From assembly GCA_030705825.1 (NCBI GenBank), contig JAUZPR010000005.1, forward strand, positions 1 through 63,059: 63,059 nucleotides of DNA. The letters run 5' to 3'. Both the position numbers and the translations under genes were made by a program. Positions 1-57,221 of the stretch are shown piece after piece. The stretch is from Bacillota bacterium (lineage in GTDB: Bacteria; Bacillota; Clostridia; Acetivibrionales; JANLFN01). How positions within the stretch are numbered: the first letter of the stretch is position 1; every line of letters starts with the position of its first letter. Under the pieces are notes generated by a model. It was not told where the DNA came from and made no database searches. It saw only the letters and a program-made list of their open reading frames with translations.

Positions 1-85
1 TATTGCTTTTCGACTGTACACTGTCAATTGTACACTGTACACTTACATTTCAACTGTACACTGTCCACTGTCAACTATCAACTTG
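1..85 (-). repeat. Heptad-phased tandem array (about 11 units, ACAGTTG/ACAGTGT-like on the minus strand), cut by the window edge
   Basis: On the + strand CTGT/TTGT recurs at 14,21,28,35 and again at 54,61,68,75,82 (7-nt spacing, one phase slip). The first two units encode the last codons and TGA stop of ORF 71..286. Confidence 0.8.
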
Positions 86-286
86 AACACGGCTTCCCGG
101 CTGCAGCTTGGGATTTAAATATGCTTTCGGGGAAGTACTTATTATTCTGCTGATAACATATCCATCGTTCTGATCTCTGGATACCTGCACCTTTACACCC
201 AGATAGTCCATTTCCATTGTTTCCTGAGGTCTATATCCGGCGTCTCCAAAAATTACGTCCATAGGCATAATTGTATATAATATCAC
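71..286 (-). CDS. YlzJ-like small protein
   Basis: 71-aa ORF overlapping the stop of the upstream ClpP-like gene by 4 nt. Size and position after tepA match Bacillus ylzJ. Confidence 0.55.
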
Positions 287-7539: not shown

Positions 7540-8793
7540 TTAAATATAATTTTTAAAGTTAATTTCTCCCTTGATATTTCCTACAGCGGTAAAGCCGATA
7601 TTATTTATATCAAGAACCTGTTCAAGTACATTGTTTACCCTTTCCATATTGATTTGTTCTATCTTGAACAAAATTTCTTCCGGGGTATTTATTTTACCCA
7701 GCAAAAGCTCTGACTTTCCTATACTGTTCATTCTGCTGCTTGTACTTTCAAGTCCCAGAATATAATTGCCTTTTAGCTGTTCTTTTGACTTGGCAAGCTC
7801 CTCAGGCTTTATTCCGTCTTTTTTTATTTCCTTAATCTCTTTAATGATCATTTTTAATACCTGATTTACGTGTTCAGGTTTCATTCCTGCATATACGGTA
7901 AATAATCCTGCATTTTTATATGACGATGGATAGGAATATATGGAATATACAAGCCCTTTTGCTTCTCTTATTTTCTGAAAAAGCCGTGAACTCATGCCTC
8001 CGCCCAGAATATTGTTAACTGCAAGCAAGGTGTATAGTTCATCATTTCCGTGTTCTATACCTTTAAATCCCATACAAATATGGACCTGTTCGGTTTCCTT
8101 GCTTTTTATTCTTGTGTTTGGCATAAATTCAGCATTTTCGTTGGTTTCTCCTTTAGTACACTTTCCCTTCCATGAACTGAAGGCTTTTGTGAGAAGCTCC
8201 AGTAAAACGTCATCATCGTAATTTCCTGCCACAGCTATAACTGTATTTTGCGGAGTATAATTGCAGGCAATATAGTTTTTGATTTTCTCTCTGTCCACAT
8301 TTTCAAGGCATTCCTTGGTACCCAGTATGGGATACCCAAGAGGGTTCCCGTCCCATACCGTTTCAGACAGGATATCGTGTACCAGTTCCTCGGGAGAATC
8401 CTCGTACATACCTATCTCTTCAAGTATTACCTTTCTCTCTACATCCATATCGGTTTTAGAGAACTTTGAATTGAAAAACATGTCTGAAAGAATATCTATA
8501 GCTATATCAATATGTGTATCAAGCGTTTTAGTATAATAGCACGTACATTCCTTACCTGTAAATGCATTAATCTGCCCGCCGATATTATCAATGATCTCCG
8601 CAATTTCTTTTGCAGTCCTGTTCCTCGTACCCTTGAAAAGCATATGCTCAATAAAGTGAGAAATACCATTGTTAGTGGTATTCTCATTTCTTGAACCTGT
8701 AGCAACCCAAATACCCACTGATACAGATCTCATATATGGTATTTTTTCACATACAATCCTGACTCCGTTTTTTAGAACGATTTTTTTATACAT
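7540..8793 (-). CDS. M16-family zinc peptidase (YmxG/MlpA-like)
   Basis: 417 aa with inverted zinc motif HFIEHMLFKG (HxxEH). Located downstream of pnp as in Bacillus. Confidence 0.85.
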   Translation of the reverse strand: MYKKIVLKNGVRIVCEKIPYMRSVSVGIWVATGSRNENTTNNGISHFIEHMLFKGTRNRTAKEIAEIIDNIGGQINAFTGKECTCYYTKTLDTHIDIAIDILSDMFFNSKFSKTDMDVERKVILEEIGMYEDSPEELVHDILSETVWDGNPLGYPILGTKECLENVDREKIKNYIACNYTPQNTVIAVAGNYDDDVLLELLTKAFSSWKGKCTKGETNENAEFMPNTRIKSKETEQVHICMGFKGIEHGNDELYTLLAVNNILGGGMSSRLFQKIREAKGLVYSIYSYPSSYKNAGLFTVYAGMKPEHVNQVLKMIIKEIKEIKKDGIKPEELAKSKEQLKGNYILGLESTSSRMNSIGKSELLLGKINTPEEILFKIEQINMERVNNVLEQVLDINNIGFTAVGNIKGEINFKNYI

Positions 8794-10941: not shown

Positions 10942-11079
10942 ATATTATCCTCCATGTTTTATATTTACTACAGACGTATATAACGACGTACGGCAGGTTT
11001 AAAATCAAGGCTTAGGTTGAGGTTAAGGCAAGAACTGAATTAATTGACAATTATTTAATTAAGGTTTCACATTTATTCA

Positions 11080-11124
11080 CTGACAACTGTCATCTGTCAA
11101 TTGTCAACTGTCAACTGCCTTTCA
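11080..11124 (-). repeat. Heptad-phased array (GACAGTT x5-6 on the minus strand) in the rpsO-pnp intergenic leader
   Basis: CTGT/TTGT/CTGC on + at 11087,11094,11101,11108,11115. Closed by CACTGA/TCAGTG and embedded in a longer imperfect inverted repeat (about 10992-11031 versus 11125-11150). Confidence 0.8.
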
Positions 11125-11280
11125 GTGCTTACCTTAGCCTTAACCCTGCCTGTTCTTTTCTGTCACTTCATATACAATCTGCAGTATTATACTTTTTAAT
11201 TTTCATCTCTATTTTTATCGAATTACATAATTATTAAACATTAATATCGCTCTGAAAATATTTACAATAACTATAAAAGC

Positions 11281-15280: not shown

Positions 15281-15285
15281 AAATA

Positions 15286-15317
15286 AGTTGACAGTTGGCA
15301 GAGGACAGTGGACAGTT
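15286..15317 (+). repeat. Heptad-phased array (AGTT core, 5 units) just after the cotJB stop
   Basis: AGTT/AGAG/AGTG at 15286,15293,15300,15307,15314. Confidence 0.75.
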
Positions 15318-15361
15318 ATTTTAGAAAGATAATAAAAGACGGTTGTAAGCTCAATAACTTT

Positions 15362-15407
15362 AATCTATAACCTATAACTGTAAACTGTACACTGTACACT
15401 GTACATT
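15362..15407 (+). repeat. Heptad-phased array in inverted orientation (AACTGTA/CACTGTA, about 7 units) just before the cotJC RBS
   Basis: AATC/AACC/AACT/AACT/CACT/CACT/CATT at 15362..15404 in 7-nt steps. Partially complementary to 15286..15317. Confidence 0.75.
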
Positions 15408-15427
15408 AATAACAAGGAGGTAAAGAT

Positions 15428-18677: not shown

Positions 18678-21002
18678 ATGGATAATCGCTTAAATGCGAG
18701 GCCAAAAATCGCTTTTTTTCAATCCGATCTGGAGGGTGCTTTTTCCGACACACTCAGTAAAATTGCTATTGCCTTATCTGAAATATTCGATGTAAATTTG
18801 TATATTTTCCCCGGAAAACCTTTAAAGCCCGTTGATAGCTATGATTACCAATATAACGTCATATATAATTATGCAACCAAAAACTCTGTAGACGCAATAA
18901 TTCTGGCATCAGGCACCTTGGGCAAATATGCTTCGAATACTGAATTAAAGCAATTTGTCTCTAAATTCAAATCCATTCCTGTCATAAGTACTGCAGTTAA
19001 AGTCAATGGTGTACCAAGTATTACAATGGACAACTATTATGGACTTAAGCAGGGAATCAACCACTTGATAAAAGATCACGGCAAACGTAATATTGCTTTT
19101 ATCGGAGGGCCTAAAAAAAGTCATGAGGCAGAGTCCAGGTATTTGGCCTATATTGATGCTTTAAAGGAAAATGATATAAAATTTGATCCAAGTTTGGTTT
19201 ATGAAGGTGATTTTTCTTCAATTTCAGCTGTTGAAGCCATACATACTTTTATTGATATAAATAAAAAATATTTTGATGCTCTGGTTGCTTCAAATGATAA
19301 CATGGCTCTGACTGCCATTACGGAACTGAACGCAAGAAATATCAAGGTTCCTCAGGATATATGTGTAATCGGGTATGACAACACTAATGAATCACAGAAC
19401 TCATCCCCTGCTTTAACAACTGTCAGGCAGCCCTTGTTTGAAATGGTAAAGAAAGCCTTTCAAATGGCATTACAAATGATAAATGGTACTGTCATAAATA
19501 ATGATATTGTTATGTCATCTGAATTAATTATAAGAGAATCCTGCGGCTGTTCATCAAAAATAATGAATACTGCAGCCGGATCTACTGTTCCGGGTATAAC
19601 CCATGAAAAAAACGATCCCAGATACTTAGCTGATAAATTTATTGAAGCCCATATTGAAAACCTGCATAATACATCAATAATAATAAAGGGTTTTTATGAT
19701 TTTGTATTCCAGTTTATTGATTCAGTCCATAAAAACGCCTGTACCTCAGACAATCTGGATACTTTATTCAAAGCTTTTAAAAATATTTTTAATTTTAATA
19801 AAATTCCTGAAGACAATATCACTAAAATTCATGATATTGTCTCAGACCTTACTGATAATATCCGTAGTATTGAAGGTTTTGTTAAAAACCAGAAGGTTTG
19901 GAATGATTTCATTAACGCACTGCATATTTTTATTACCGATTCAGTAATCAAATGCAAAAACAGCAGATGGATGTTATACCATTATGATATCCAATACTTG
20001 AGGCAAACATTAAACCGAATGATTTCAACCCTTACAAGCATTGAAGATCTTTTAAAATCAACTGTACCTGGTTTGAAGCATCTTGGTATAAAAAGAATGT
20101 ATATATATCTTTATAATCATGAAATAGTACATAATTTTGATTGTATATGGAAAAAACCCGACAAGCTTAATTTGGCATTTGCTTATGAAAAGGAAAGGAT
20201 TCTTGACTTAAATAACATCCAAAGACAGATTCCCAGTGATAGATTGTTGAATAATGAATTGATTCAAATTAAAGAGAAGCATACCATATTGATTAATCCA
20301 ATTTTCTTTATGGAGGAGCAGCTAGGCTTGATTTTATGCGAGCTTGATACCACCGACAAGTATTTGTTTGAATCCATAGTACTGGAAATCAGCTGTGCAA
20401 TCAAGCTGTCCCTGTTAATTAACAATTACAAGAAAACTACAGAAAAACTTATGGTTACAAAAAAGAGTCTTGAAGAACGTGGAAAAAACCTTAACACTCT
20501 ATCTTATACCGATTCTCTTACGAATCTTTATAACCGTCGTGGTTTTCTAAACATTGCAAGGCAAAGCCTCGACCTTGCTAAGAACATGGGACGTTCAGGG
20601 CATTTGTTTTTCCTTGATATTGACAGGTTAAAAGTAATTAATGATGCCTACGGACATGATGAAGGCGATAAAGCCATAAAGGCAGTAGCAGATATTTTAC
20701 GCAGAACATTCAGGAATTCAGACGTTATTTCAAGGCTTGGCGGAGATGAATTTACCATTTTGACAATTGATACTTATTCAGATTTGGTACCTGCCATTAA
20801 AAACAGGTTTGAAAATAATTTTAATTTATATAATCTAAATTCCGGCAACCCTTACAAATTGTCAGTAAGTATGGGAGTCTTACCCTTTAATACAGAAGAA
20901 AACATAACGGTTGAATATCTACTTAAAATTGCTGATACCCGTTTATATGAACAAAAAGTGCTTAAGAAAAACCATAGAATTGCTGAGCATACCGATGTAT
21001 AA
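18678..21002 (+). CDS. Cytoplasmic LacI-type sugar-binding (PBP1) domain, GAF-like middle region and GGDEF diguanylate cyclase
   Basis: No signal peptide, TM segment or HTH. PBP1 motifs (VASNDNMALTAI...VIGYDNT...LTTVRQP). C-terminal GGDEF (LYNRRGF, RLGGDEF) with intact I-site RNSD five residues upstream. Confidence 0.8.
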   Translation: MDNRLNARPKIAFFQSDLEGAFSDTLSKIAIALSEIFDVNLYIFPGKPLKPVDSYDYQYNVIYNYATKNSVDAIILASGTLGKYASNTELKQFVSKFKSIPVISTAVKVNGVPSITMDNYYGLKQGINHLIKDHGKRNIAFIGGPKKSHEAESRYLAYIDALKENDIKFDPSLVYEGDFSSISAVEAIHTFIDINKKYFDALVASNDNMALTAITELNARNIKVPQDICVIGYDNTNESQNSSPALTTVRQPLFEMVKKAFQMALQMINGTVINNDIVMSSELIIRESCGCSSKIMNTAAGSTVPGITHEKNDPRYLADKFIEAHIENLHNTSIIIKGFYDFVFQFIDSVHKNACTSDNLDTLFKAFKNIFNFNKIPEDNITKIHDIVSDLTDNIRSIEGFVKNQKVWNDFINALHIFITDSVIKCKNSRWMLYHYDIQYLRQTLNRMISTLTSIEDLLKSTVPGLKHLGIKRMYIYLYNHEIVHNFDCIWKKPDKLNLAFAYEKERILDLNNIQRQIPSDRLLNNELIQIKEKHTILINPIFFMEEQLGLILCELDTTDKYLFESIVLEISCAIKLSLLINNYKKTTEKLMVTKKSLEERGKNLNTLSYTDSLTNLYNRRGFLNIARQSLDLAKNMGRSGHLFFLDIDRLKVINDAYGHDEGDKAIKAVADILRRTFRNSDVISRLGGDEFTILTIDTYSDLVPAIKNRFENNFNLYNLNSGNPYKLSVSMGVLPFNTEENITVEYLLKIADTRLYEQKVLKKNHRIAEHTDV

Positions 21003-29504: not shown

Positions 29505-30245
29505 ATGATTTATATATACGACGGTTCCTTCAATGGTCTTTTAACCGCAGTGTTCGAAGCCTATTACAGACACGAAGAGCCTGCTGAAATAAGAACTGTA
29601 ATAAATCATCAGATAAATATTCTGGATGATACATCATATATTGCTACAGATACTGATAAAGCCTCCAGGGTTTATGAGGCCATTGTACTTAAGATTTCTG
29701 AATATTGTCTTCAGGATATTTACTACACATATCTTTCGAACTTTGAAGATTCAGGCACTTTAGTTTACAGGTATCTAAAGCTTGGCTTTTCCGTCGGTAA
29801 AAAGCTTAACATGTATCAGGCCCACGAAAGCGTTATTGCTGTAAGAAACATAGTCTACAAGGTTATGGGAGAAAGGCACCGGTTACTTGGACTCTTAAGA
29901 TTCTCCAAACTTGACTGCGGAGTATATTATGCTCCTGTATCACCCGATCATAATGTTTTAGAGCTTCTTGCCCCACATTTTGCAGAAAGGATGGGAGATC
30001 AGGATTGGATTATTCATGATACAAAAAGAAAAACCGCTGCAGTTTGTAAGTCGGGTACTTGGTATATGACCGACTTTGATAGCAATCAGTACGATATGGT
30101 CAAAGAAAATGAGGCTGATTATCAAGCCTTTTGGAGCAGTTATTACAAGAATATAAACATAACTGAAAGAAGTAATATAAATCTTCAAAAAAGAAACATG
30201 CCGGTACGCTACTGGAAGTATCTGACTGAAAAGCAGGTAAACTAG
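29505..30245 (+). CDS. TIGR03915-family putative DNA repair protein (partner of the radical SAM enzyme)
   Basis: 246 aa starting 19 nt after the radical SAM gene. N-terminus YDGSFNGLLTAVFEAY is typical of this family. No fused uracil-DNA-glycosylase domain. Confidence 0.65.
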   Translation: MIYIYDGSFNGLLTAVFEAYYRHEEPAEIRTVINHQINILDDTSYIATDTDKASRVYEAIVLKISEYCLQDIYYTYLSNFEDSGTLVYRYLKLGFSVGKKLNMYQAHESVIAVRNIVYKVMGERHRLLGLLRFSKLDCGVYYAPVSPDHNVLELLAPHFAERMGDQDWIIHDTKRKTAAVCKSGTWYMTDFDSNQYDMVKENEADYQAFWSSYYKNINITERSNINLQKRNMPVRYWKYLTEKQVN

Positions 30246-30246
30246 A

Positions 30247-30316
30247 AGTTAATAGTTGAGAGTTGAGAGTTGAGAGTTCAAAAACCATTACAACTTTCAT
30301 CTCTCAACATGCAACT
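30247..30316. repeat. Two opposed heptad-phased arrays (AGTTGAG x5, then inverted) between convergent genes
   Basis: AGTT at 30247,54,61,68,75. AACT/ATCT/AACA/AACT at 30292,99,306,313. GTTGAGAG pairs with CTCTCAAC. Confidence 0.8.
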
Positions 30317-30320
30317 GATC

Positions 30321-30959
30321 TTAATCCGGCAGCTGCCGTTTATATTCATCGTTTGATACCTGGTCCATATCATCGACTATTCCCTGTTTATCAGTATCAT
30401 TTGTATAATAATCTTCATAATACTGCTCATTAGTGCCAATGTCCTGGGGAGTATCACTTGATCCGTATTTCATAAGATCATTCCACTGATCCATGCCCTC
30501 AAACTCGTAATCGTCTCCGGCAAAAAACCGATAGCTGGTACGTTGCAGCTGTTCCTGCTCATATGGCAGTTTACGTTTCATAAGCATGGTATCATCCGAT
30601 TTTATCTCTTCGCATTCGATACACAAACTAGTATAGGGAATGATTTCAAGCCTACCTTCGCCTATATCCCTTCCGCAGTAAGTGCAAACACCGTATAAGC
30701 CCTTATCGATTCTGCTCAATGCTTCGTGTATCTGATATAATTTATCTTCAACATGTACAACAAGAGCATTGTTATGCTCCAATTCATACAACTGTGTTCC
30801 AATTTCAGCAGGATGATTATCATAATTTGAGAGTTCGGTCGGATCCATCATGTTTTGCTCCGAAAGTCCATTTTCCTTCATCTGATCAAGCAGAGCATCA
30901 TAATGTTCTTCTTCTTTAAGAAGCTTATTTTTGAAATGCATGAGCATATCCTTATCCAT
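30321..30959 (-). CDS. DksA/TraR C4 zinc-finger protein (YteA-like)
   Basis: CTYCGRDIGEGRLEIIPYTSLCIEC four-Cys finger. ATG 30959 has GGAGG 8 nt upstream and overlaps the upstream gene by 8 nt. Confidence 0.7.
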   Translation of the reverse strand: MDKDMLMHFKNKLLKEEEHYDALLDQMKENGLSEQNMMDPTELSNYDNHPAEIGTQLYELEHNNALVVHVEDKLYQIHEALSRIDKGLYGVCTYCGRDIGEGRLEIIPYTSLCIECEEIKSDDTMLMKRKLPYEQEQLQRTSYRFFAGDDYEFEGMDQWNDLMKYGSSDTPQDIGTNEQYYEDYYTNDTDKQGIVDDMDQVSNDEYKRQLPD

Positions 30960-31715: not shown

Positions 31716-32504
31716 ATGGAATATACAGCTGATATAGGAGTTTTTGGAGGTTCAGGCTTTTATTCCTTTCTTGAAAACGTTACAGAAATTGAAATTGATA
31801 CTCCATATGGAAAACCCAGTGACAAAATAGCTTTAGCAACTTTTGAAGGAAAAAAGATAGCATTTCTTCCAAGGCATGGGAAAAATCATCAATACCCGCC
31901 GCACATGGTTCCCTACAGAGCAAACCTTTATGCCATGAAACAGCTCGGTGTCAAGAAAATAATAGGCCCAACCGCTTCCGGCAGCCTTCAGGCTGAAATT
32001 AAACCTGGTGATTTTGTTGTCTGCGACCAGTTTATCGACAGAACAACAGGAAGAAAGGATACTTTCTTTGACGGTCCTGAAACACAGCATCCAAGCTCTG
32101 CACACCCATACTGTCCATCTCTCAGGAAGCTTGCAATTGAGAGCGGAAAAGAACTGGGCATTACCATGCACGAAAAGGGTACTGTTGTAGTTATACAGGG
32201 ACCCAGATTTTCAACCGTTGCTGAAAGCCGCTGGTTTAACAAAATGGGATGGGAAGTTATAAATATGACCCAGTATCCTGAATGTTACCTTGCCAGAGAA
32301 CTTGGCATATGCTATGTTAACATAGCTTTAATTACAGATTACGATGCAGGTCTGGAAGGAAGAAATGACATACAGCCTGTATCCCATGAAGAGGTTTTGA
32401 AGGTATTTGAAGAAAATAATGAGAAAATAAAGAATTTATTGTTCGGACTGATAAGAAAAATAGATATAAACAACACAGCCTGCTCATGTAACAATCCATT
32501 CTGA
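31716..32504 (+). CDS. mtnP: S-methyl-5'-thioadenosine phosphorylase
   Basis: 262 aa of the PNP/MTAP family (IGVFGGSGFY, LPRHG..H...P, GPTASGSL, INMT). Confidence 0.85.
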   Translation: MEYTADIGVFGGSGFYSFLENVTEIEIDTPYGKPSDKIALATFEGKKIAFLPRHGKNHQYPPHMVPYRANLYAMKQLGVKKIIGPTASGSLQAEIKPGDFVVCDQFIDRTTGRKDTFFDGPETQHPSSAHPYCPSLRKLAIESGKELGITMHEKGTVVVIQGPRFSTVAESRWFNKMGWEVINMTQYPECYLARELGICYVNIALITDYDAGLEGRNDIQPVSHEEVLKVFEENNEKIKNLLFGLIRKIDINNTACSCNNPF

Positions 32505-32512
32505 TAAAAGCG

Positions 32513-32546
32513 GGTAGAATGGTGGAATGGGTAATAGGTGGAATAG
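32513..32546 (+). repeat. 8-nt tandem repeat (GGTAGAAT GGTGGAAT GGGTAATA GGTGGAAT)
   Basis: Four contiguous degenerate 8-mers starting 9 nt after the mtnP stop. Confidence 0.7.
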
Positions 32547-32714: not shown

Positions 32715-32739
32715 AAAAACGGGCGGCCAATGGCCGCCC
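32715..32739 (-). terminator. Intrinsic terminator of aroB
   Basis: Minus strand GGGCGGCC-ATT-GGCCGCCC (8 GC pairs) followed by GTTTTTG. Confidence 0.75.
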
Positions 32740-32745
32740 CTACTG

Positions 32746-32791
32746 AACTCCGAACTTCTAACTCCGAACTTCTAACTCCGAACCCCTACTC
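32746..32791 (-). repeat. Heptad-phased array (14-nt unit AACTCCGAACTTCT x2.5 on +; GGAGTTA/GAAGTTC on the aroB strand)
   Basis: AACT at 32746,53,60,67,74 and AACC at 32781. Lies between the aroB stop (32797) and its terminator. Confidence 0.85.
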
Positions 32792-33892: not shown

Positions 33893-36800
33893 TTATTTGC
33901 TCTTAACAATGGTTATAACCATTTTCTCGCCATTTATATTCCATTCTTTTTTATAGCCTTCGATGCTGCCCTCGGTAATTTCTTCGGCCAGAACGTCATT
34001 TGTGATTTCAGAAGCATTCCGTTGCATTATGCCTTTGATTGTATCATTACCGTCAAAGAACACCTTGATATGGTCCATTACCTCAAAATCCGCTTCTTTT
34101 CTCATTGTCTGGATTTTACTGATTATCTCGCGTACAAAGCCTTCCTCTATAAGCTCGGGACTCAGGTTAGTATCGAGTACTACAGTAACCTCCTTGTCTG
34201 CTTCAGATACGAAACCCTGTTTCTGGGTAACCTCGGTTAAAACATCGGTTTCAGCCAATTCTACTTTATTACCATCGACCAGGATTTTTGCTGTCTCTCC
34301 CTTACCAAAAGGTACAAGCAGCAAATCCGATTCAATTTCACTGAGGACCTTTCCTATCTGTGGTACCAGCTTGCCGTATTTCGGGCCCAGGGTTTTAAGC
34401 TGGGGTTTGAATTTATATGCCGTAAAGGCCTTGGTATCATTGGTAAACTCGATTTGCTTGATGTTAAGCTCATCCTCTACAAGTTCAATATACATTTGGG
34501 GCATTGTAAAGCCCGATTTTACATACATTTTACCTATAGGCTGCCTGTTCTTTATATTGGCAGTATTTCTACAGGCACGTCCAAGTACGACCAATTTGAG
34601 GACATTTTCCATGTTTTCTTCAAGTTCCCTGTTGATGATCTTTTCATTGCTTACAGGGAAATCACAAAGATGTATGCTGATAGGTGCATTCCTGTCAATA
34701 TTCCTTACAAGGTTACCATATATTTCTTCAGCCATAAAAGGTATGAACGGTGCCGAAAGCTTTGCAACAGTAGTCAGAACAGTATATAAAGTCATATATG
34801 CATTGATCTTGTCCTGTTCCATTCCCTTTGTCCAGAAGCGCTCCCTGCTTCTTCTTACATACCAGTTGCTGAGTTCATCGGTGAAATCCTGGATTGCTCT
34901 TGCCGATTCAGTAATCCTATACCCTTCAAGTCCCTTGTCAACGGCAGCGATCAAGGAATTAAGCTTTGAAAGTATCCATTTGTCAAGTACAGCCAGTTTT
35001 TCAAAATCCAATTTATAATTAAGAGGATTGAATTTGTCTATGTTTGCATAAAGTACATAGAATGCGTAAGTGTTCCACAGGGTTCCCATGAACTTTCTCT
35101 GTGCGTCACTTACTGCATCCTCATAGAAACGGCTTGGCAGCCATGGTGCGCTTGTCGTATAGAAATACCAACGAACGGCATCCGCGCCCTGTTTATCCAG
35201 CACGACCCACGGATCTACGACATTTCCCTTGTGCTTGCTCATTTTCTGTCCTTCCTTGTCCTGTACAAGTCCAAGAACTATTACGTTCTTAAAGGCAGGT
35301 TTGTCAAACAAAAGTGATGAAATAGTGTGCAGTACATAGAACCAGCCTCTTGTCTGGTCAAGCGCTTCACTGATAAAATCCGCAGGATAATTATCTGCAA
35401 AAATCTCCTTGTTTTCAAAAGGATAGTGCCACTGTGCATAAGGCATGGAACCGGAATCGTACCAACAGTCTATAACCTCGCTAACCCTCTTCATCTTTCC
35501 GCCGCATTTTTCACACTTAAGATAAACATTGTCTATATAAGGCTTGTGAAGCTCAATATCATCGGGCACATTTTCTCCCATTTCCTTAAGCTCTGCCCTG
35601 CTTCCTATAACATGCCTGTGACCGCATTTGCATTCCCATATTGGTAGTGGAGTACCCCAGTACCTTTCTCTGCTAAGTCCCCAGTCCACATTATTTTCAA
35701 GGAAATTGCCAAAACGTCCTTCTCCTATGCTTTCAGGATACCAGTTGATTTTTTTGTTGTTTTCAATAAGCTTGTTTCTTATTTCAGTAGTTTTTATAAA
35801 CCAGGTATCGCGAGCATAATACAAAAGCGGTGTGTCACATCTCCAGCAGAACGGGTATGAGTGCTCGTAATCAAGGACCTTGTAGAGCAGGTTTCTGCCT
35901 TCAAGATGCTTGATTATATCGGGATCCGCATCCTTAACAAATACACCCTTCCAGGGAGTTACCGAGTCAACAAATTTTCCTTCTTCATTTACCAGCTGCA
36001 CAAACGGGAGATCATTATTTCTTCCGGTTCTGGCATCGTCTTCACCGAAAGCAGGTGCAGTGTGAACTATACCTGTACCGTCGGTAAGTGTTACGTAATC
36101 TGCTGTTACAACATAATATGCTCTCTTTTTGGGTTCAGTGAAATTGAATAATGGCTCATAGTCCATTCCTACAAGATCCTTACCCTTACATTTATCCAAT
36201 ACCTTGTATTCTTCCTTCAGCACTGTTGGAGCAAGTGCTTCAGCCAGAATATATACTTCATCTCCGCACTGTGCTTTGATGTAAGTTTCAGCAGGATTAA
36301 CAGCAAGTGCAACGTTTGAAGGCAGCGTCCAGGGAGTTGTTGTCCATGCCAGCAGGTATACCTGATTTTGGCCTTTTACAGGGAATTTAACATAAATAGA
36401 TGGTTCCTTTACATCCTTGTACCCTTGTGCAACCTCATGGCTTGACAATGCTGTTCCGCATCTCGGGCAGTAAGGTACTATTTTGTGTCCCTTGTACAGG
36501 AGGCCTTTGTCCCAAACCTGCTTCAAGGACCACCAGACAGATTCTATATAATTGTTGTCATAGGTTATATAAGGGTTTTCCATGTCTGCCCAGTAACCTA
36601 CCCTGTCACTCATTTTTTCCCATTCTTTTTTATAAGTCCAGACACTCTGCTTGCATTTCTGGATAAACGGTTCAACCCCGTAATCCTCGATCTGCGGCTT
36701 TCCGTTTATACCCAAAAGCTTTTCAACCTCAAGCTCAACAGGTAGTCCGTGAGTATCCCAGCCGGCCTTTCTTAGCACCTTGTAGCCCTTCATGGTTTTG

Positions 36801-37012
36801 TACCTTGGTATGATATCTTTAATTACTCTCGTAAGAATATGGCCTATATGAGGTCTTCCGTTTGCTGTAGGAGGCCCGTCATAGAATGTGAAGGTCGGAC
36901 CGCCTTCCCTGTTTTTAACACTCTTTTCGAAAATATCATTCTCTTTCCAGTACTTCAATACTTCCTGTTCTCTGTCAACAAAATTCAAATTCGTAGAAAC
37001 CTTTTCGTACAA
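33893..37012 (-). CDS. ileS: Isoleucine--tRNA ligase (long, type-2-like form)
   Basis: 1039 aa, HIGH motif PHIGH, KMSKS variant KMSKH, Cys clusters CPRC and CWRC. Confidence 0.97.
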   Translation of the reverse strand: MYEKVSTNLNFVDREQEVLKYWKENDIFEKSVKNREGGPTFTFYDGPPTANGRPHIGHILTRVIKDIIPRYKTMKGYKVLRKAGWDTHGLPVELEVEKLLGINGKPQIEDYGVEPFIQKCKQSVWTYKKEWEKMSDRVGYWADMENPYITYDNNYIESVWWSLKQVWDKGLLYKGHKIVPYCPRCGTALSSHEVAQGYKDVKEPSIYVKFPVKGQNQVYLLAWTTTPWTLPSNVALAVNPAETYIKAQCGDEVYILAEALAPTVLKEEYKVLDKCKGKDLVGMDYEPLFNFTEPKKRAYYVVTADYVTLTDGTGIVHTAPAFGEDDARTGRNNDLPFVQLVNEEGKFVDSVTPWKGVFVKDADPDIIKHLEGRNLLYKVLDYEHSYPFCWRCDTPLLYYARDTWFIKTTEIRNKLIENNKKINWYPESIGEGRFGNFLENNVDWGLSRERYWGTPLPIWECKCGHRHVIGSRAELKEMGENVPDDIELHKPYIDNVYLKCEKCGGKMKRVSEVIDCWYDSGSMPYAQWHYPFENKEIFADNYPADFISEALDQTRGWFYVLHTISSLLFDKPAFKNVIVLGLVQDKEGQKMSKHKGNVVDPWVVLDKQGADAVRWYFYTTSAPWLPSRFYEDAVSDAQRKFMGTLWNTYAFYVLYANIDKFNPLNYKLDFEKLAVLDKWILSKLNSLIAAVDKGLEGYRITESARAIQDFTDELSNWYVRRSRERFWTKGMEQDKINAYMTLYTVLTTVAKLSAPFIPFMAEEIYGNLVRNIDRNAPISIHLCDFPVSNEKIINRELEENMENVLKLVVLGRACRNTANIKNRQPIGKMYVKSGFTMPQMYIELVEDELNIKQIEFTNDTKAFTAYKFKPQLKTLGPKYGKLVPQIGKVLSEIESDLLLVPFGKGETAKILVDGNKVELAETDVLTEVTQKQGFVSEADKEVTVVLDTNLSPELIEEGFVREIISKIQTMRKEADFEVMDHIKVFFDGNDTIKGIMQRNASEITNDVLAEEITEGSIEGYKKEWNINGEKMVITIVKSK

Positions 37013-37114: not shown

Positions 37115-37406
37115 TTAAAATAAAAAAGCCCTCCAATCCCTGTAAGGGACGGAGAGCATATACGCTCACGCGGTACCACCCAAATTTATTACTTCAAAAT
37201 AATCACTCTATAAGGGACATTTCTTAATATAAAGAATTAATCCCTTTAAATTTTAACGGATTTTTCCGGCGTCCCTTACTTTTTTTCAGGAAGCAACTCA
37301 TGGATGATTTTCAAAGGCAGCCCCTGCAGGATTTCCACCATCACCTGCTCTCTATAAAGTTAAAACCCTTTACTCTTTCCAGTCATCGTCTTTAGGCTAT
37401 GCAATT
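37115..37406 (-). promoter_or_regulatory. T-box riboswitch leader, isoleucine specifier
   Basis: Minus strand T-box sequence AAATTTGGGTGGTACCGCG (complement of 37169..37181). Stem I AGAGAG element. Specifier loop GAAAAUCAUCC with the Ile codon AUC. Terminator CTCCGTCCC/GGGATTGGAG plus U-run. Confidence 0.9.
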
Positions 37407-44794: not shown

Positions 44795-44882
44795 ATCAAC
44801 TCCCCTGCCCCTCAATCTTGAGGGGATTCCATAGAAAGCTGGCAATGCTGGCGCATTGCCAGCTTTAAAGAGTATCTTTACC
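44795..44882 (+). repeat. 88-bp structured repeat, copy 1 (left flank of murI)
   Basis: Differs at only about 6-7 of 88 positions from 46096..46183. Contains hairpins CCCCTC-AATCTT-GAGGGG and a 14-bp perfect stem AAAGCTGGCAATGC/GCATTGCCAGCTTT. Confidence 0.9.
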
Positions 44883-45151: not shown

Positions 45152-45934
45152 GTGAAAATAGGTTTTTTTGATTCAGGTATCGGAGGTATTACTGTACTGT
45201 ACGATACATTAAAAGTGCTACCTGATGAAGATTACATATATTATGCAGATACATTAAATGTTCCATATGGGCCAAAACCCAAAGATGAAGTTAAAAAGTA
45301 TATTTTTAGTGCTATAGATTTTATTATGGAACAGGGAGTCAAGGCCATAGTTATTGCTTGTAATACTGCTACAACCGTAGCAATTGAAGAGTTACGGACT
45401 AAATACAGTATTCCGATCATTGGTATGGAACCTGCTGTAAAACCTGCTGTTGAGATAAATAGAGATATAGATAAACGAGTTCTGGTAACTGCGACAGCAT
45501 TGACTCTGAAGGAGGAAAAACTGCATAACCTTATTGCCAAATTAGATAGCGAGCATGTTATTGATTTTTTACCTCTTCCAGGACTGGTCCAATTTGCAGA
45601 AAAACTTGAATTTGATGAAAAAATAGTATTACCTTATCTTAAAGAACAGTTCTTTGATTATGATTTAAATAATTATGGAACTGTTGTTTTAGGATGTACT
45701 CATTTTTCTTACTTTAAGGACATGTTTAGAAAATTATTTCCATCAGATGTTAGTATAATCGATGGAAACATTGGTACTGCAAAAAATCTAAAAAGAATTT
45801 TAAAGGAAATGAATTTATTAAATGAAGGCAATGGTAGTATTACTTTCTATAATTTAGAAGTTAAGGCTGAGGATGAGGTAGAAATAGATAAATATAACAA
45901 ACTATTTAATAGACTTGATACCATTAATGAATGA
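45152..45934 (+). CDS. murI: Glutamate racemase
   Basis: GTG start. FDSGIGG, IACNTAT and GCTHFSY catalytic-Cys motifs. Confidence 0.9.
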   Translation: MKIGFFDSGIGGITVLYDTLKVLPDEDYIYYADTLNVPYGPKPKDEVKKYIFSAIDFIMEQGVKAIVIACNTATTVAIEELRTKYSIPIIGMEPAVKPAVEINRDIDKRVLVTATALTLKEEKLHNLIAKLDSEHVIDFLPLPGLVQFAEKLEFDEKIVLPYLKEQFFDYDLNNYGTVVLGCTHFSYFKDMFRKLFPSDVSIIDGNIGTAKNLKRILKEMNLLNEGNGSITFYNLEVKAEDEVEIDKYNKLFNRLDTINE

Positions 45935-46095: not shown

Positions 46096-46183
46096 ATCAA
46101 CTCCCCTGCCACTCAATCTTGAGGGGATTTCTTAGAAAGCTGGCAATGCTGACGCATTGCCAGCTTTAAAGAGTGTCTTTACC
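46096..46183 (+). repeat. 88-bp structured repeat, copy 2 (right flank of murI)
   Basis: Direct repeat of 44795..44882. The only change in the 14-bp stem-loop is in its loop (TGGC to TGAC). Confidence 0.9.
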
Positions 46184-46232
46184 GACACTACTCTATAATA
46201 TCTTTGTTCATTAAATTATCACCTTAAATTAC

Positions 46233-46265
46233 AAAAAAGCCTTTATCTTTGATAAAAGCTTTTTT
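46233..46265. terminator. Bidirectional intrinsic terminator (serves spo0A from the right)
   Basis: AAAAGCCTTTATC-TTT-GATAAAAGCTTTT with A-run and T-run flanks. Confidence 0.75.
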
Positions 46266-46287
46266 ATCAATATTGTTAAATTTTCAT

Positions 46288-46367
46288 CGACTGTCAATTG
46301 CCAACTATCAACTGTCATCTGCCTTGTTGTCAACTGTACATTGTCAATTGTACACTGTCAACTGTCA
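46288..46367 (-). repeat. Heptad-phased array (about 11 units, TGACAGT/GTACAGT on the spo0A strand) filling the spo0A 3' UTR
   Basis: + strand CTGT/TTGC/CTAT/CTGT/CTGC at 46291..46319 and TTGT/CTGT at 46327..46362, in 7-nt steps with one phase slip. Starts at the spo0A stop and ends about 20 nt before the terminator. Confidence 0.85.
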
Positions 46368-47171
46368 TCAGCTTACTTTAAGTTCAAGTCTCAGTTTATC
46401 TGCCACCATTGCAATAAATTCAGAATTTGTCGGTTTGCCTTTTCCAATGTTTACGGTGTAGCCAAAGAGTGAGTCTATTGTATCAACCTGTCCTCTGCTC
46501 CATGCTACTTCTATAGCATGCCTGATTGCCCTTTCAACTCTGCTGGGGGTAGTGTTGTATTCTCTGGCTATTGTCGGATATAACTGCTTCGTAATGGAAT
46601 TTATTATATCAAGGTCCTTTATGACCATGATTATCGCATCTCTAAGGTACTGATACCCTTTAATATGGGCCGGTACACCTATTTCATGCATAATATTGGT
46701 TACTTCGGCTTCTATGTTTTTAGGAGAAGATATGTAGTGTACGTTTTTAATTTCACTTGTATAATCGGATCTTATAACAGACGGCTGCTTTATATCTTTC
46801 AACTGTCTGATCCTGGAAACAAGAACATCCATGTCAAATGGTTTTACAACATAATATTCTGCACCGAGTGCCAGAGCCCTTTGTGTTATTTTATCCTGTC
46901 CGACTGCAGAAAGTATTATGAACAGCGGCCTTTTTGCCAACTGGACGGAATTAACCTTTTCCAGCACACCAAGGCCGTCAAGGTGGGGCATGATTATATC
47001 CAGTATAGCTATATCCGGCATTTTGTTTGTAATCAGCTCATAAGCTTCCATACCATCCCTTGCAACGCCCACTACTTCGATATCATTCTGGTTGTTCAGA
47101 TATTCGCATAAAATGTCGCCGAACTCTCTATTATCATCGGCTATAACAACCTGAATCTTCTTGTTAACCAA
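46368..47171 (-). CDS. spo0A: Sporulation master regulator Spo0A
   Basis: Receiver domain ([20 protein letters not shown]) and Spo0A-specific C-terminal domain ([43 protein letters not shown]). TTG start with a GGGGGA RBS. Confidence 0.97.
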
Positions 47172-54863: not shown

Positions 54864-55508
54864 TTAGACATTCTTATGATGCTTGCTGCTTTTTTTCTTC
54901 TTTTTATTTCTGACAAAGAACTTTGTAATAACTGCGATTTTATATACTATGTAATTACTGTTATGAATAGCTATGGTTTTACCTATGGCTTTTCCCCCAA
55001 CAGTCAATGATGCTACCATTCCAGTTATGATCAAACCTGCCACGGTGGTTTCGGAAGCATTTCCCTGGCCGGCAATTTTTACAATTATATAGGCACTTGC
55101 CGTTCCGCTTATAACTCCGGCTATATCCCCAACAACATCATTACAGAAGCTTGCCACCTTATTTGCATGCTTTATCATAAGTATTGCCTGTTTTGCACCA
55201 TAAACCTTTCTAGATGCCATTGCGTGAAAAGGTGCCTCATCGGCAGCAGTTACGGCAATTCCTATTATATCAAATATAATTCCCACAAATATAATTGCAA
55301 AGACAATAATTAAAGCAATAACTGTATCTGTATTTTTAAGACCTGATGATACAAAAGATAAAAACGCCGACAGAAAAAAAGACGCAACTGTTATTAAAAT
55401 ATACCATTTTGCGTTCTCTGCAGCTGAACCTAACATCTTTACTCTGAATTTTACTCTTCTTTCTTCTTTTTCAACCTTGTGATTTTTTTCGTCTTCACGA
55501 TCACTCAA
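54864..55508 (-). CDS. oapA: OLE-associated membrane protein OapA (candidate)
   Basis: About 4 TM helices with buried acidic residues (IIFDIIGIAV, FCNDVVGDIAGV) and lysine-rich tails. Sits between the OLE-like RNA and dxs as in Bacillus halodurans. The start is uncertain: TTG 55508 or ATG 55436. Confidence 0.65.
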   Translation of the reverse strand: MSDREDEKNHKVEKEERRVKFRVKMLGSAAENAKWYILITVASFFLSAFLSFVSSGLKNTDTVIALIIVFAIIFVGIIFDIIGIAVTAADEAPFHAMASRKVYGAKQAILMIKHANKVASFCNDVVGDIAGVISGTASAYIIVKIAGQGNASETTVAGLIITGMVASLTVGGKAIGKTIAIHNSNYIVYKIAVITKFFVRNKKKKKSSKHHKNV

Positions 55509-55546
55509 AACTTTTTCACCTTTATCAATTTATGTATGGTAAAACC

Positions 55547-56152
55547 GGGTGGTAATATATTGAGTAAATTTTGCGGCTTAGGTCAGGCAGGATTTCCCCG
55601 GTTTCTACTGAAACGTCGCCGTTCCAGCGGTTTCCCTTTAAAGCATCCGCCGCATAGTTACCCTTTGCGGGGCCTGATTACCACTTAGTCCACACTGCAA
55701 TCCCCAATATATCTCTTAACAGAACAGTCTAGGAGATTTCCTCTTCAGTCTGACTGCTTCCTAGCCTCTTTTGCAAGCTTGGTTTCAAATAGCAATAATG
55801 GTTGTATATTGGCCAATATACAGCCATCCGATCCATTATCCGCCAAGTTCACTCAAGGCAGGCTACACTGTTCACAGCATCTTGCGATACCGCCTAACAG
55901 GTTTAATCCCTTCTCGTGGGGGATGTCGGATAAAGCAAGCTTTACCCGGCTTTCATCCAAAAGTAAGGGTCTCCACGGTAGAGGGGTCAACGCCCGCATG
56001 CCATTGCAGATCGCCCCTAAACCTTAACTCCCAGCATCGACCCACTACTGGGCGTAGCAAGCCGACACAAGGAACTTCATCGATGTGCCCTTTGACGGCT
56101 TTTTAGGCCCGTCTTCAGAAACAGCAGTCCTGACTAGAATACTGTACCACCC
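55547..56152 (-). ncRNA. ole: OLE (ornate, large, extremophilic) RNA, candidate
   Basis: 805-nt gap with no minus-strand ORF of 60 aa or more, visibly G+C-rich relative to flanks, many local helices. An 8-nt terminal complement (GGGUGGUA / UACCACCC) encloses 606 nt. Canonical ispA-OLE-oapA-dxs synteny. Confidence 0.75.
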
Positions 56153-56183
56153 TGTTATACACTCTAAGTAAGTACGGATATTG

Positions 56184-56312: not shown

Positions 56313-57221
56313 CTAATTGTTTCTTGAGCACAGCTTAAAGATGAGTGTTCTTAGGAATTCAGCACTGGCTCCGAAACCCTGCAGGCACTTGTCTGCTTCG
56401 GTTGTTACTTCATTAAGCAGCCTTTTGGATTCTTCCATCCCATAGATAGTTATATATGTAGATTTTAATTTTTTTGCATCGCTTCCTGTTTGCTTTCCCA
56501 TGGAAGCCAGATCGCCTTCAACATCCAGAATATCATCACGTATCTGGAATGCCAGACCTGTTTTATCTCCGAATTTTTCAATCAGGCTCATTTGTTCTTC
56601 AGATGCACCTGACAGAATGGCAGCTGCAACAGCAGGTGCTTTAAGAAGCGCACCTGTTTTACATTTATGCATGTAATGAAGAGTTTCCTTTTGTATTATT
56701 TTATTCTCAGATTCCAGGTCAACGACCTGTCCGCCTATCATGCCTGAAGTTCCTGCAGCCTCTGCAATGGCATGCATTGCAGTAAGTTTTTGAACCATAT
56801 TGCCTTCAGTTTTTAAAGCATGCTCCATCATTACTTCATATGCCGTATTCAAAAGTGCATCTCCTGCAAGAATAGCGGTTGCTTCTCCGAACACCTTATG
56901 GTTTGTCAGCCTTCCCCGTCTGTAATTGTCATCGTCCATGGCTGGAAGGTCGTCATGTATCAGCGAATATGTATGTATCATTTCAATTGCACATGCAAAA
57001 GGCAAAACATCCTTCTGATTTCCTCCCAGCATCTCGCACACAGCAAGACATATAACCGGACGGATGCGTTTTCCTCCTGCGAAGATACTGTATCTCATCG
57101 CTTCATATATGTTCTTTTCGGGTGTATCCTTTTTAGGTATTAGCCGTTCCAGTTCTTCATTGACAATTTCAATCCATGAGCCTATTTTAGCGTTGTATTC
57201 TTCTTCATTTAAGTACTGCAT
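56313..57221 (-). CDS. ispA: Farnesyl/geranyl diphosphate synthase
   Basis: First and second Asp-rich motifs LIHDDLPAMDDD and FQIRDDILD. Confidence 0.95.
   Translation of the reverse strand: MQYLNEEEYNAKIGSWIEIVNEELERLIPKKDTPEKNIYEAMRYSIFAGGKRIRPVICLAVCEMLGGNQKDVLPFACAIEMIHTYSLIHDDLPAMDDDNYRRGRLTNHKVFGEATAILAGDALLNTAYEVMMEHALKTEGNMVQKLTAMHAIAEAAGTSGMIGGQVVDLESENKIIQKETLHYMHKCKTGALLKAPAVAAAILSGASEEQMSLIEKFGDKTGLAFQIRDDILDVEGDLASMGKQTGSDAKKLKSTYITIYGMEESKRLLNEVTTEADKCLQGFGASAEFLRTLIFKLCSRNN

Follow-up and report, generated by a model that had tools for sequence, protein, structure and literature searches.

Heptanucleotide repeat arrays downstream of spo0A and in other intergenic spacers of a clostridial contig

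The stretch of DNA analyzed here (the complete 63,059-nt contig JAUZPR010000005.1 from a bacterium of the Acetivibrionales; hereafter the window) carries head-to-tail arrays of 7-nt units, or heptads, directly after the spo0A stop codon and at five further intergenic sites. Together the six sites comprise eight sub-arrays of 4-11 units each, in the 63-kb window (a1 to a6, Table 1). These arrays belong, as a clostridial member, to an established class of long simple sequence repeats (SSRs) that lacks a functional explanation and was previously described in cyanobacteria, Xanthomonas, Beggiatoaceae and Bacteroidetes. On balance, we think that the arrays were generated by slippage, were mirrored across hairpins and have survived only where they could be tolerated. 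Tandem 7-nt amplification with 14- and 21-nt blocks was observed, as was the coming and going of arrays between related genomes, and at the one locus where an array persists it changes in unit number and sequence and keeps its phase.

Heptad arrays in the window and in related genomes

Array a6 follows spo0A. Read as spo0A mRNA (minus strand), it consists of the units GACAGTT GACAGTG TACAATT GACAATG TACAGTT GACAACA, a single 8-nt unit (A)GGCAGAT which constitutes a +1 slip, and the units GACAGTT GATAGTT GGCAATT GACAGTC. Tandem Repeats Finder gave positions 46290-46367 a period of 7, 11.0 copies and 62% matches, with a period-14 block nested at 46327-46365. The initial annotation of this DNA, made from the sequence alone, had described about 11 heptads with one slip between the spo0A stop codon and a terminator some 20 nt further on, and this description was confirmed, the order being stop codon, array, a gap of 21 nt and terminator. 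The terminator hairpin itself was missed by a simple terminator scanner, its stem being poor in G+C. The further sites listed in that annotation also proved to be real. A 26-nt stretch, 96% identical, is common to the ylzJ array (13-38) and the spo0A array (46333-46358), and a1 and a6 end on the identical terminal unit ACAGTCGA (13-20 and 46288-46295). This sharing hints that units may have been copied between arrays, and that the arrays may not be of fully independent origin.

With respect to period, 42-nt sliding windows with at least 30 self-matches numbered 21 at lag 7 and two at its multiple, lag 14, and none was found at any other lag from 3 to 15. Tandem Repeats Finder revealed a superstructure of periods 14 and 21, as is typical of block duplication. 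When 51 units were placed in one register, position 4 was A in 49, position 5 was G in 45, position 6 was T in 46 and position 7 was T or G in 48, in agreement with the shared AGTT (AGTG) core noted initially. Positions 1-3, on the other hand, are specific to the array (GAC, TAC, GAG, CGG or AGA). The dinucleotide AG was found in register at 7-nt spacing in 43 of the 51 units. Stop codons summed over the three frames numbered 31 on the AGTT strand and 5 on its complement. Cross-matches between sites were confined to the heptad tracts, whereas the flanks of the arrays and their internal spacers are unique within the window; it is therefore the heptads alone that recur.

A pattern scan of viral contigs for four consecutive ACAGTNN units returned 66 loci, compared with at least 120, 72 and 39 for the composition-matched controls CAATG, TAGCA and AACGT, and with 54 and at least 120 for ACAGT at periods of 8 and 6. 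Because this collection is rich in giant-virus contigs with tandem repeats of all kinds, the scan weighs neither way on whether the AGT core or the period of 7 is special. Rfam 15 covariance models, applied at the gathering threshold and at E <= 1, gave no match at any array and returned only an ornate large extremophilic (OLE) RNA, a T-box and one spurious weak match.

For comparison with related genomes, 160 spo0A-anchored loci (2.5 Mb) were used together with PNPase-anchored loci. DNA identity between the window and the fetched loci was about 70-74%, and the Spo0A proteins closest to that of the window were 94%, 90% and 88-89% identical to it, with those of Acetivibrio and Pseudobacteroides at 83-84%. 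In two of the collections, of genome contigs and of metagenome contigs, the best Spo0A matches were at 88% and 85% identity. An array after spo0A was found in none of the related loci compared (about 30, at 60-94% protein identity), including the relatives at 94%, 90% and 88-89%; in the related loci the terminator lies about 20-60 nt past spo0A and is preceded by no heptads. As a6 has no counterpart at any of the related spo0A loci examined, it is not a conserved element of the spo0A 3' untranslated region (UTR), and the suggestion that it serves there as a stability or processing element was not supported. If the arrays arose by slippage, a6 would have no regulatory role specific to spo0A, and any effect on the mRNA through extra structure or spacing would be a by-product. 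When this genome is annotated, the array in the spo0A 3' UTR should not be labeled as an element that controls sporulation.

The arrays as a whole are distributed in the same sporadic manner. A uniform detector found five period-7 arrays in the 63-kb window versus 12 in the 2.5 Mb of the 160 related spo0A loci. None was present in the closest loci (L001-L005 and L007-L015), nor in the relatives at 94% and 88-89% Spo0A identity. The relative at 90% (locus L162; Logan run SRR22746114) is rich in arrays. Its 19.6-kb locus has three, which follow dxs, tlyA and a Met-gamma-lyase gene; despite synteny across the block, it shares no array site with the window. One L162 array has the layout of stop codon, array and G+C terminator, and another forms a heptad-armed hairpin. 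Array-rich and array-free genomes are thus interspersed, and the two array-rich genomes use different sites. Orthologues of the other array-adjoining genes of the window were not found in the 160 spo0A loci. Two loci that are syntenic with the window (L172 and L175) have a cotJB-cotJC spacer of 15 nt and a terminator directly past ylzJ, with no array at either place. Among more distant clostridia, sporadic arrays were detected in L006 (Acetivibrio alkalicellulosi DSM 17461; heptad-armed hairpin at 20122-20252), L016, L032 (Dethiothermospora), L040 (Alkaliphilus) and L159.

Placement within the window is strongly biased to non-coding DNA. All six sites are non-coding except for the last ~5 codons of ylzJ, in a window of which 11.6% is non-coding (p about 2e-6). 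The claim that every array is non-coding therefore held for the sites as such and not for the end of ylzJ, where a1 overlaps the coding sequence and the TGA stop (71-73); the final ylzJ codons are the last two a1 units, and the TGA is supplied by a unit junction. Of the convergent spacers 3 of 5 hold arrays, as do 2 of 21 co-directional ones, and the 6 divergent spacers hold none (Fisher p = 0.018). Six of the eight sub-arrays begin no more than 10 nt from a stop codon. The layout of stop codon, array and terminator, which had been claimed for three sites, was seen at spo0A and aroB; at ylzJ it is not verifiable, as the window ends inside a1. The neighboring genes, as identified with Pfam, are ylzJ, rpsO-pnp, cotJB-cotJC, a DUF4130 gene with a convergent DksA/TraR-type zinc-finger gene, aroB and spo0A, and are mostly housekeeping genes. 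A link to sporulation or stationary-phase control, which had been proposed initially, is not borne out, since arrays also follow the aroB, DUF4130 and DksA/TraR-type genes and, in L162, the three genes named above.

Individual arrays differ in their arrangement. In the cotJB-cotJC spacer a3b is the inverted partner of a3a, and in the predicted fold ACAGU and ACUGU blocks pair at the 7-nt register, with a z of only -1.4, which is not significant. Arrays a4a and a4b are also inverted partners and form one hairpin of the 22-bp class which fills a 75-nt spacer (-25.7 kcal/mol, z = -5.0 for 30240-30325). Tandem Repeats Finder reported a5 as period 14 with 100% matches.

The AGTT strand is the sense strand in seven of eight sub-arrays. 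Each of the four unpaired arrays is on the minus strand and in sense orientation; this strand is the leading strand throughout the window, as judged by GC skew, and carries 44 of the 58 genes. Both arrays on the plus strand form one half of an inverted pair. The initial observation that the AGTT strand is the transcribed one thus stands as a count, but it is confounded with replication direction, with the gene-rich strand and with the inverted pairs, and transcription, replication and chance are not separable as causes of the bias with these data. In L162, two arrays are in sense and one in antisense orientation. Inverted pairs are frequent, and heptad-armed hairpins were predicted for a4 and for arrays in L176, L177, L006 and L159, in addition to the one in L162.

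Conserved phase in the pnp leader

Array a2 is situated not in a 3' UTR but about 160 nt downstream of the rpsO terminator, which directly follows the rpsO stop codon, and is part of the hairpin of the pnp leader (Table 1). The basal stem of this leader is conserved almost base for base between the window and the loci L172, L175 and L176 (alignment A1), whose PNPase proteins are 85-88% identical to that of the window. DNA identity is 84-89% among these three loci and about 72% between them and the window.

All three loci carry heptads at the apex of the hairpin. In L172 the apex reads GGCAGTT GACAGTT GAC-gagag-GACAGTT GACAGTT (4.7 direct units), and the first 17 nt of this array are identical to the window (17-mer GGCAGTTGACAGTTGAC). 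In L175 it consists of five direct units, ATTAGTT GGCAATG TACAATG TACAATT TACAGTT. The L176 apex is an inverted pair, (GAGAATT)n and (AATTCTC)n, which lengthens the stem (z = -6.1). A further locus, L177, has (AGAAGTT)n and (AACTTCT)n arms (z = -6.1) on a basal stem that differs from that of the window; this stem is common to L177 and L173, and heptads are present in L177 only, where the apex is longer by about 110 nt. Heptad arrays are therefore located at the apex of the pnp leader in five lineages, with position and phase kept and sequence not. The prediction that phase rather than sequence would be conserved in relatives thus held at the pnp leader, and did not hold at the spo0A, cotJB-cotJC and ylzJ sites, where relatives are without arrays.

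Among close relatives the apex was as short as about 45 nt and as long as about 200 nt. As the arrays of L172, L175 and L176 differ completely within DNA that is otherwise 84-89% identical, the repeat is hypervariable inside conserved flanks. The hairpin matched no Rfam family; in this clade it probably serves as the autoregulatory element for RNase III and PNPase. The counterpart in the E. coli pnp leader is a well-understood autoregulatory element. The array in the pnp leader offers a natural experiment by which binding or cleavage of such repeats could be told apart from mere tolerance, and its conserved phase leaves room for a functional reading.

Origin of the arrays and alternative explanations

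The view that no known repeat class has this structure did not hold, as intergenic heptameric SSRs of matching anatomy have been described (PMC4692102, PMC4679880). Rehm et al. (2015) reported the heptamers GGGAATC in Xanthomonas and GGGGA(C/T)T in Nostoc PCC 7120, of which 89-93% are intergenic, at an average of 28 nt from the upstream open reading frame (ORF) versus 160 nt from the next (PMC4692102). Those repeats mostly have about four units which are heterogeneous around a conserved core, about 40% of them form convergent inverted pairs, divergent spacers are under-represented, the neighboring genes belong to all functional classes, length and sequence vary between related species, and no function was found (PMC4692102). 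The clostridial arrays resemble them in having exact 7-nt units, mostly about 4-6 per array, a position near upstream stop codons, avoidance of divergent spacers and inverted pairs that form hairpins. They differ from them in that their units are A/T-rich with an AGT(T/G) core and can form no G-quadruplex. The Xanthomonas repeats also show no preference for the leading or lagging strand (PMC4692102), whereas the unpaired arrays in the window (n = 4) are all on the leading (sense) strand.

TAACTGA repeats were described by MacGregor (2015) in marine Beggiatoaceae, some Cyanobacteria and Bacteroidetes, where they are intergenic, in 2-6 copies and sometimes in long arrays, with a sporadic phylogenetic distribution and strain-to-strain indels in 7-nt increments (PMC4679880). 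One strand of this repeat is rich in stop codons and the other is open, and the author proposed that placement is controlled by stop content (PMC4679880). The reverse complement of TAACTGA, TCAGTTA, has the CAGTT core of the clostridial units. The Beggiatoa repeats have a uniform unit in the AACTG orientation and lie directly upstream of start codons, in contrast to the heterogeneous units in the window, which are mostly in the CAGTT orientation and past stop codons; a3b alone, next to cotJC, has a Beggiatoa-like layout.

Long SSRs of this kind are reportedly widespread. A 2007 study by Mrazek, Guo and Shah is reported to identify heptanucleotides as the most abundant class of long SSRs (5-11 bp) in many prokaryotes, with a length of about 7 nt suggested to favor polymerase slippage; long SSRs reportedly abound in some genomes and are absent from close relatives, which is reportedly ascribed to a general tendency to expand by polymerase slippage and not to a specific function. 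Cyanobacterial heptanucleotides of the short tandemly repeated repetitive (STRR) type are reportedly treated in a 1990 paper by Mazel et al. To our knowledge, Clostridia and other Bacillota are not among the described heptamer-rich groups, and a literature search on heptanucleotide repeats in Firmicutes and Clostridia, partly with a loose query, found nothing relevant. A spore-forming clostridium related to Acetivibrio thus joins the groups that carry such repeats, which are the commonest long SSRs in many bacteria and the role of which has been open for more than 30 years. Both Rehm et al. and MacGregor cite the slippage idea of Mrazek et al. (PMC4692102, PMC4679880). The rules of placement seen in the window are those of Xanthomonas and Nostoc, which points to a general mechanism and not to a lineage-specific regulator.

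Such a mechanism would have three components. Slipped-strand mispairing during replication would cause arrays to grow and shrink. Beside or inside DNA that forms a hairpin, intrastrand template switching could copy new units to the other arm, which would give rise to inverted pairs and heptad-armed hairpins. Selection would act as a filter only: because a 7-nt unit shifts the frame in a coding sequence and breaks promoters in divergent spacers, arrays would accumulate between stop codon and terminator, in convergent and intercistronic spacers and in the unconstrained apex of an RNA hairpin. Near the end of a coding sequence only the orientation with stops in three frames would be tolerated, a slip of 7 nt then giving no long C-terminal extension. 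This stop-codon filter may explain much of the sense-strand bias.

Several findings weigh against this explanation. The core A-G-T-(T/G) is nearly invariant in 51 units beside the freely differing positions 1-3, and about ten consensus-level changes all fall outside positions 4-6, for which our own estimate of the probability is ~(4/7)^10 = 0.004. Units of the type NNN-A-R-T-K occur in other clostridial lineages, where 9 of 14 arrays match at 5/7 positions or more versus 18% expected. Slippage of an arbitrary unit does not predict such a constant core, nor related units in other clostridia. The unpaired arrays, four in number, are without exception in sense orientation. The heptads of the pnp leader persist across ~72% DNA identity, and L172, L175 and L176 retain this array with no other array found in their 12-22 kb loci. 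Slippage was also inferred and not observed, the loci L162-L165 being 100% identical, so that there were no 7-nt length steps to compare.

A possible but doubtful alternative is that the AGU(U/G) heptads of the sense strand are phased for a multimeric protein that binds single-stranded RNA, and that they couple 3' UTRs and the pnp leader to decay or termination. Candidates for such a protein would be a HutP-like hexamer (XAG-N4), a chain of cold-shock domains (~7 nt each) or the KH/S1 crown of the PNPase trimer. The recurrence of AG(T) at exact 7-nt spacing with variable spacer positions is consistent with this, as are the sense orientation of unpaired arrays and the largely direct-repeat apex which the window, L172 and L175 have kept on a conserved hairpin across the divergence given above. 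HutP recognizes the A and G in XAG triplets at 7-nt spacing, in a layout of stop codon, XAG repeats and terminator (PMC2425495), and the arrays share with its sites the XAG spacing, the free spacer bases and the position between stop codon and terminator. HutP sites, however, comprise two sets of three XAG with a 12-17-nt linker, on either side of a terminator stem and upstream of read-through genes (PMC2425495), whereas the arrays are uninterrupted, stop short of the terminator stem (4-21 nt upstream), often have no downstream gene and are frequently double-stranded. The analogy with HutP drawn in the initial annotation therefore holds for the XAG-N4 spacing and fails on the two-site geometry of 12-17 nt around the terminator stem, and on the position of three sites (spo0A, aroB, DUF4130) between convergent genes, where read-through serves nothing. 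Recognition by an RNA binder is further weakened by the prediction that half of the arrays, as inverted pairs, are double-stranded, with the complementary sequence equally present in the RNA. One L162 array is antisense, orthologous 3' UTRs are without arrays, and many units (in the spo0A array, L162, L175 and L176) have AAT for AGT, so that the G required by HutP is lost. No HutP-like ORF was found in the 63-kb window by tblastn with a B. subtilis HutP query, which is weak evidence.

More tentative still is a specific form of this proposal, in which the AGU(U/G) heptads would be a phased code for a multimeric RNA binder (the KH/S1 crown of PNPase, or a HutP- or Csp-like protein), with the pnp apex as the ancestral site and the 3'-UTR arrays as newer copies. 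Were it correct, unexplained bacterial heptamer repeats would amount to a post-transcriptional regulon, and the spo0A, aroB and ylzJ transcripts would be under decay or termination control like that of pnp.

Selection for RNA structure as such, with heptads lengthening or creating hairpins whose length matters, is likewise improbable. In the pnp leader such a hairpin could be a substrate of RNase III; in convergent spacers it could be a bidirectional terminator or a 3' stabilizer, and between cotJB and cotJC an intercistronic hairpin. Long heptad-armed hairpins were indeed predicted, with the significant z values given above for the a4 spacer (-5.0), L176 (-6.1) and L177 (-6.1), and were also found in L006 and L159; the a4 hairpin is the sole structure of its convergent spacer, and of the two loci with a common basal stem, L177 and L173, only L177 has an apex extended by complementary heptads. 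Against this, the largest arrays (spo0A, ylzJ and aroB) are unpartnered direct repeats upstream of an ordinary terminator, and the cotJ hairpin is not significant. The wide range of apex lengths in close relatives suggests that any constraint is weak, and complementarity of the arms can come from template switching without selection.

We consider it very improbable that the arrays act as sites in DNA, either as tandem -35 hexamers (TTGACA + 1 nt) that decoy sigma-A or RNA polymerase, as weak Spo0A boxes (TGTCAAN versus TGTCGAA) or as sites for nucleoid proteins. TTGACA does occur 3-6 times in each of a1, a2 and a6, a promoter scanner found pairs resembling -35 and -10 elements within a6 (10/12 matches), and the presence of related units in both orientations across lineages makes recognition of double-stranded DNA conceivable. 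The decoy hypothesis, which was raised initially, fits these TTGACA-type arrays (ylzJ, pnp, spo0A) only and not the GAGAGTT, GGAGTTC and TACAGTG arrays; a3b, a4, a5 and the L176 and L177 arrays contain neither TTGACA nor an 0A-like box. No exact 0A box was found, and the 0A and -35 readings fit only three of eight sub-arrays. At a 7-bp period, moreover, one site and the next do not share a face of the helix, divergent spacers that bear promoters are avoided, and relatives are without the spo0A array.

An origin from mobile elements is just as remote, whether as remnants or termini of elements with heptad inverted repeats, resembling miniature inverted-repeat transposable elements (MITEs) or repetitive extragenic palindromic (REP) sequences, or as footprints of a transposon making 7-bp duplications. 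The inverted pairs of ~120-180 bp (15283-15408; L006) are MITE-like, the stretch and terminal unit ACAGTCGA common to a1 and a6 could be read in the same way, and the distribution is sporadic and lineage-specific; like REP sequences, bacterial interspersed mosaic elements (BIMEs) and MITEs, the arrays are dispersed and extragenic, are often located at 3' ends or where genes converge, and can fold into hairpins. REP and MITE families, however, have a consensus of 20-150 nt, whereas here only the 7-nt unit recurs and the number of copies changes by single units. No internal or flanking sequence of the arrays recurs elsewhere in the window, neither a transposase nor a target-site duplication was found, unit number varies continuously, and excision footprints would leave direct arrays of 10-11 units unexplained. 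The initial exclusion of REP, BIME and MITE elements was accordingly upheld, as was that of CRISPR arrays, which have 23-50-nt repeats with unique spacers in place of contiguous 7-nt units.

Phase-variation (contingency) SSRs were also considered and rejected, as the arrays lie in 3' UTRs, intercistronic spacers and the leader of housekeeping and sporulation genes and not in promoters of surface or virulence genes or in 5' coding sequence.

Features of the window and side observations

The coordinates of the arrays, together with those of the associated hairpins and of spo0A, are presented in Table 1.

Table 1. Heptad arrays and associated features of the window, with the pnp leaders of three related loci
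Feature	Position	Strand	Description
Heptad array a1	13..86	-	Five units, 5-nt slip, five units; runs to window edge
pnp leader stem-loop (long)	10995..11150	-	z = -5.4; a2 in upper part
pnp leader, L172	9815-9960
pnp leader, L175	9775-9960
pnp leader, L176	9660-9960
Heptad array a2	11079..11123	-	GGCAGTT GACAGTT GACAATT GACAGAT GACAGTT GTCAGTG; apical part of pnp leader hairpin
Heptad array a3a	15283..15317	+	ATAAGTT GACAGTT GGCAGAG GACAGTG GACAGTT; starts 2 nt past cotJB stop
Heptad array a3b	15377..15408	-	TACAGTG/TACAGTT on minus strand, (A/C)ACTGTA on mRNA strand; just upstream of cotJC ribosome-binding site
Heptad array a4a	30244..30278	+	AGAAGTT AATAGTT, then GAGAGTT x3; starts at stop of DUF4130 gene
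Heptad array a4b	30290..30317	-	ATCAGTT GCATGTT GAGAGAT GAAAGTT; just past stop of convergent DksA/TraR-type gene
aroB intrinsic terminator, G+C-rich	32715..32739	-	GGGCGGCCATTGGCCGCCC followed by T run
Heptad array a5	32744..32790	-	CGGAGTT alternating with AGAAGTT; 6 nt past aroB TAG stop, 4 nt before terminator
spo0A intrinsic terminator hairpin, A/U-rich	46231..46267	-	21 nt downstream of a6; minimum free energy fold of 46225-46375, z = -4.1
Heptad array a6	46289..46367	-	~11 units (6, one 8-nt unit, 4); starts directly after spo0A TGA
spo0A coding sequence (Response_reg + Spo0A_C)	46368..47171	-	TGA stop 46368-46370

The region downstream of spo0A contains an 88-nt direct repeat, 94% identical, at 44795-44882 and 46096-46183, with a terminator-like hairpin in each copy. 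The two copies flank an ORF of the Asp/Glu-racemase family (45152-45934). In several relatives (L166-L171) a merR-family gene is directly convergent to spo0A and the racemase-family ORF is not there. Judged by this comparison, some 1.3 kb of DNA seems to have been inserted downstream of spo0A in the window.

In the convergent spacer that contains a5, an 8-nt tandem repeat (GGTGGAAT, about four copies, 32513-32544, plus strand) is located right past the stop codon of a PNP_UDP_1 phosphorylase gene (31716-32504). Given this position, amplification of short units at 3' ends is not restricted to a period of 7 or to AGTT units.

Two further repeats were noted in the related loci. The longest heptad tract in any fetched spo0A- or pnp-anchored clostridial locus is that of L040 (Alkaliphilus pronyensis; 18795-19071), with about 280 nt of consecutive heptads of four unit families: AAGAGTT/AAGAGTG, ATTGAAA, TAATAAG/GAATAAG and AAAGTTA. 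Downstream of spo0A in L017 (~7840-8000), units of GATGACAGGGG (ACGGTTCCTTGACA) are followed by a long perfect palindrome centered on (CA)n/(TG)n; the period of this repeat is unrelated to the heptads.

Elsewhere in the window, a full-length OLE RNA (545 bits) was identified at 55533-56166 on the minus strand, between an ORF (54864-55508) and an ispA-like gene (56313-57221) and upstream of dxs, which is the usual OLE neighborhood. A T-box leader (126 bits) was identified at 37142-37395, also on the minus strand, upstream of a 1039-aa class-I aminoacyl-tRNA synthetase ORF (33893-37012).

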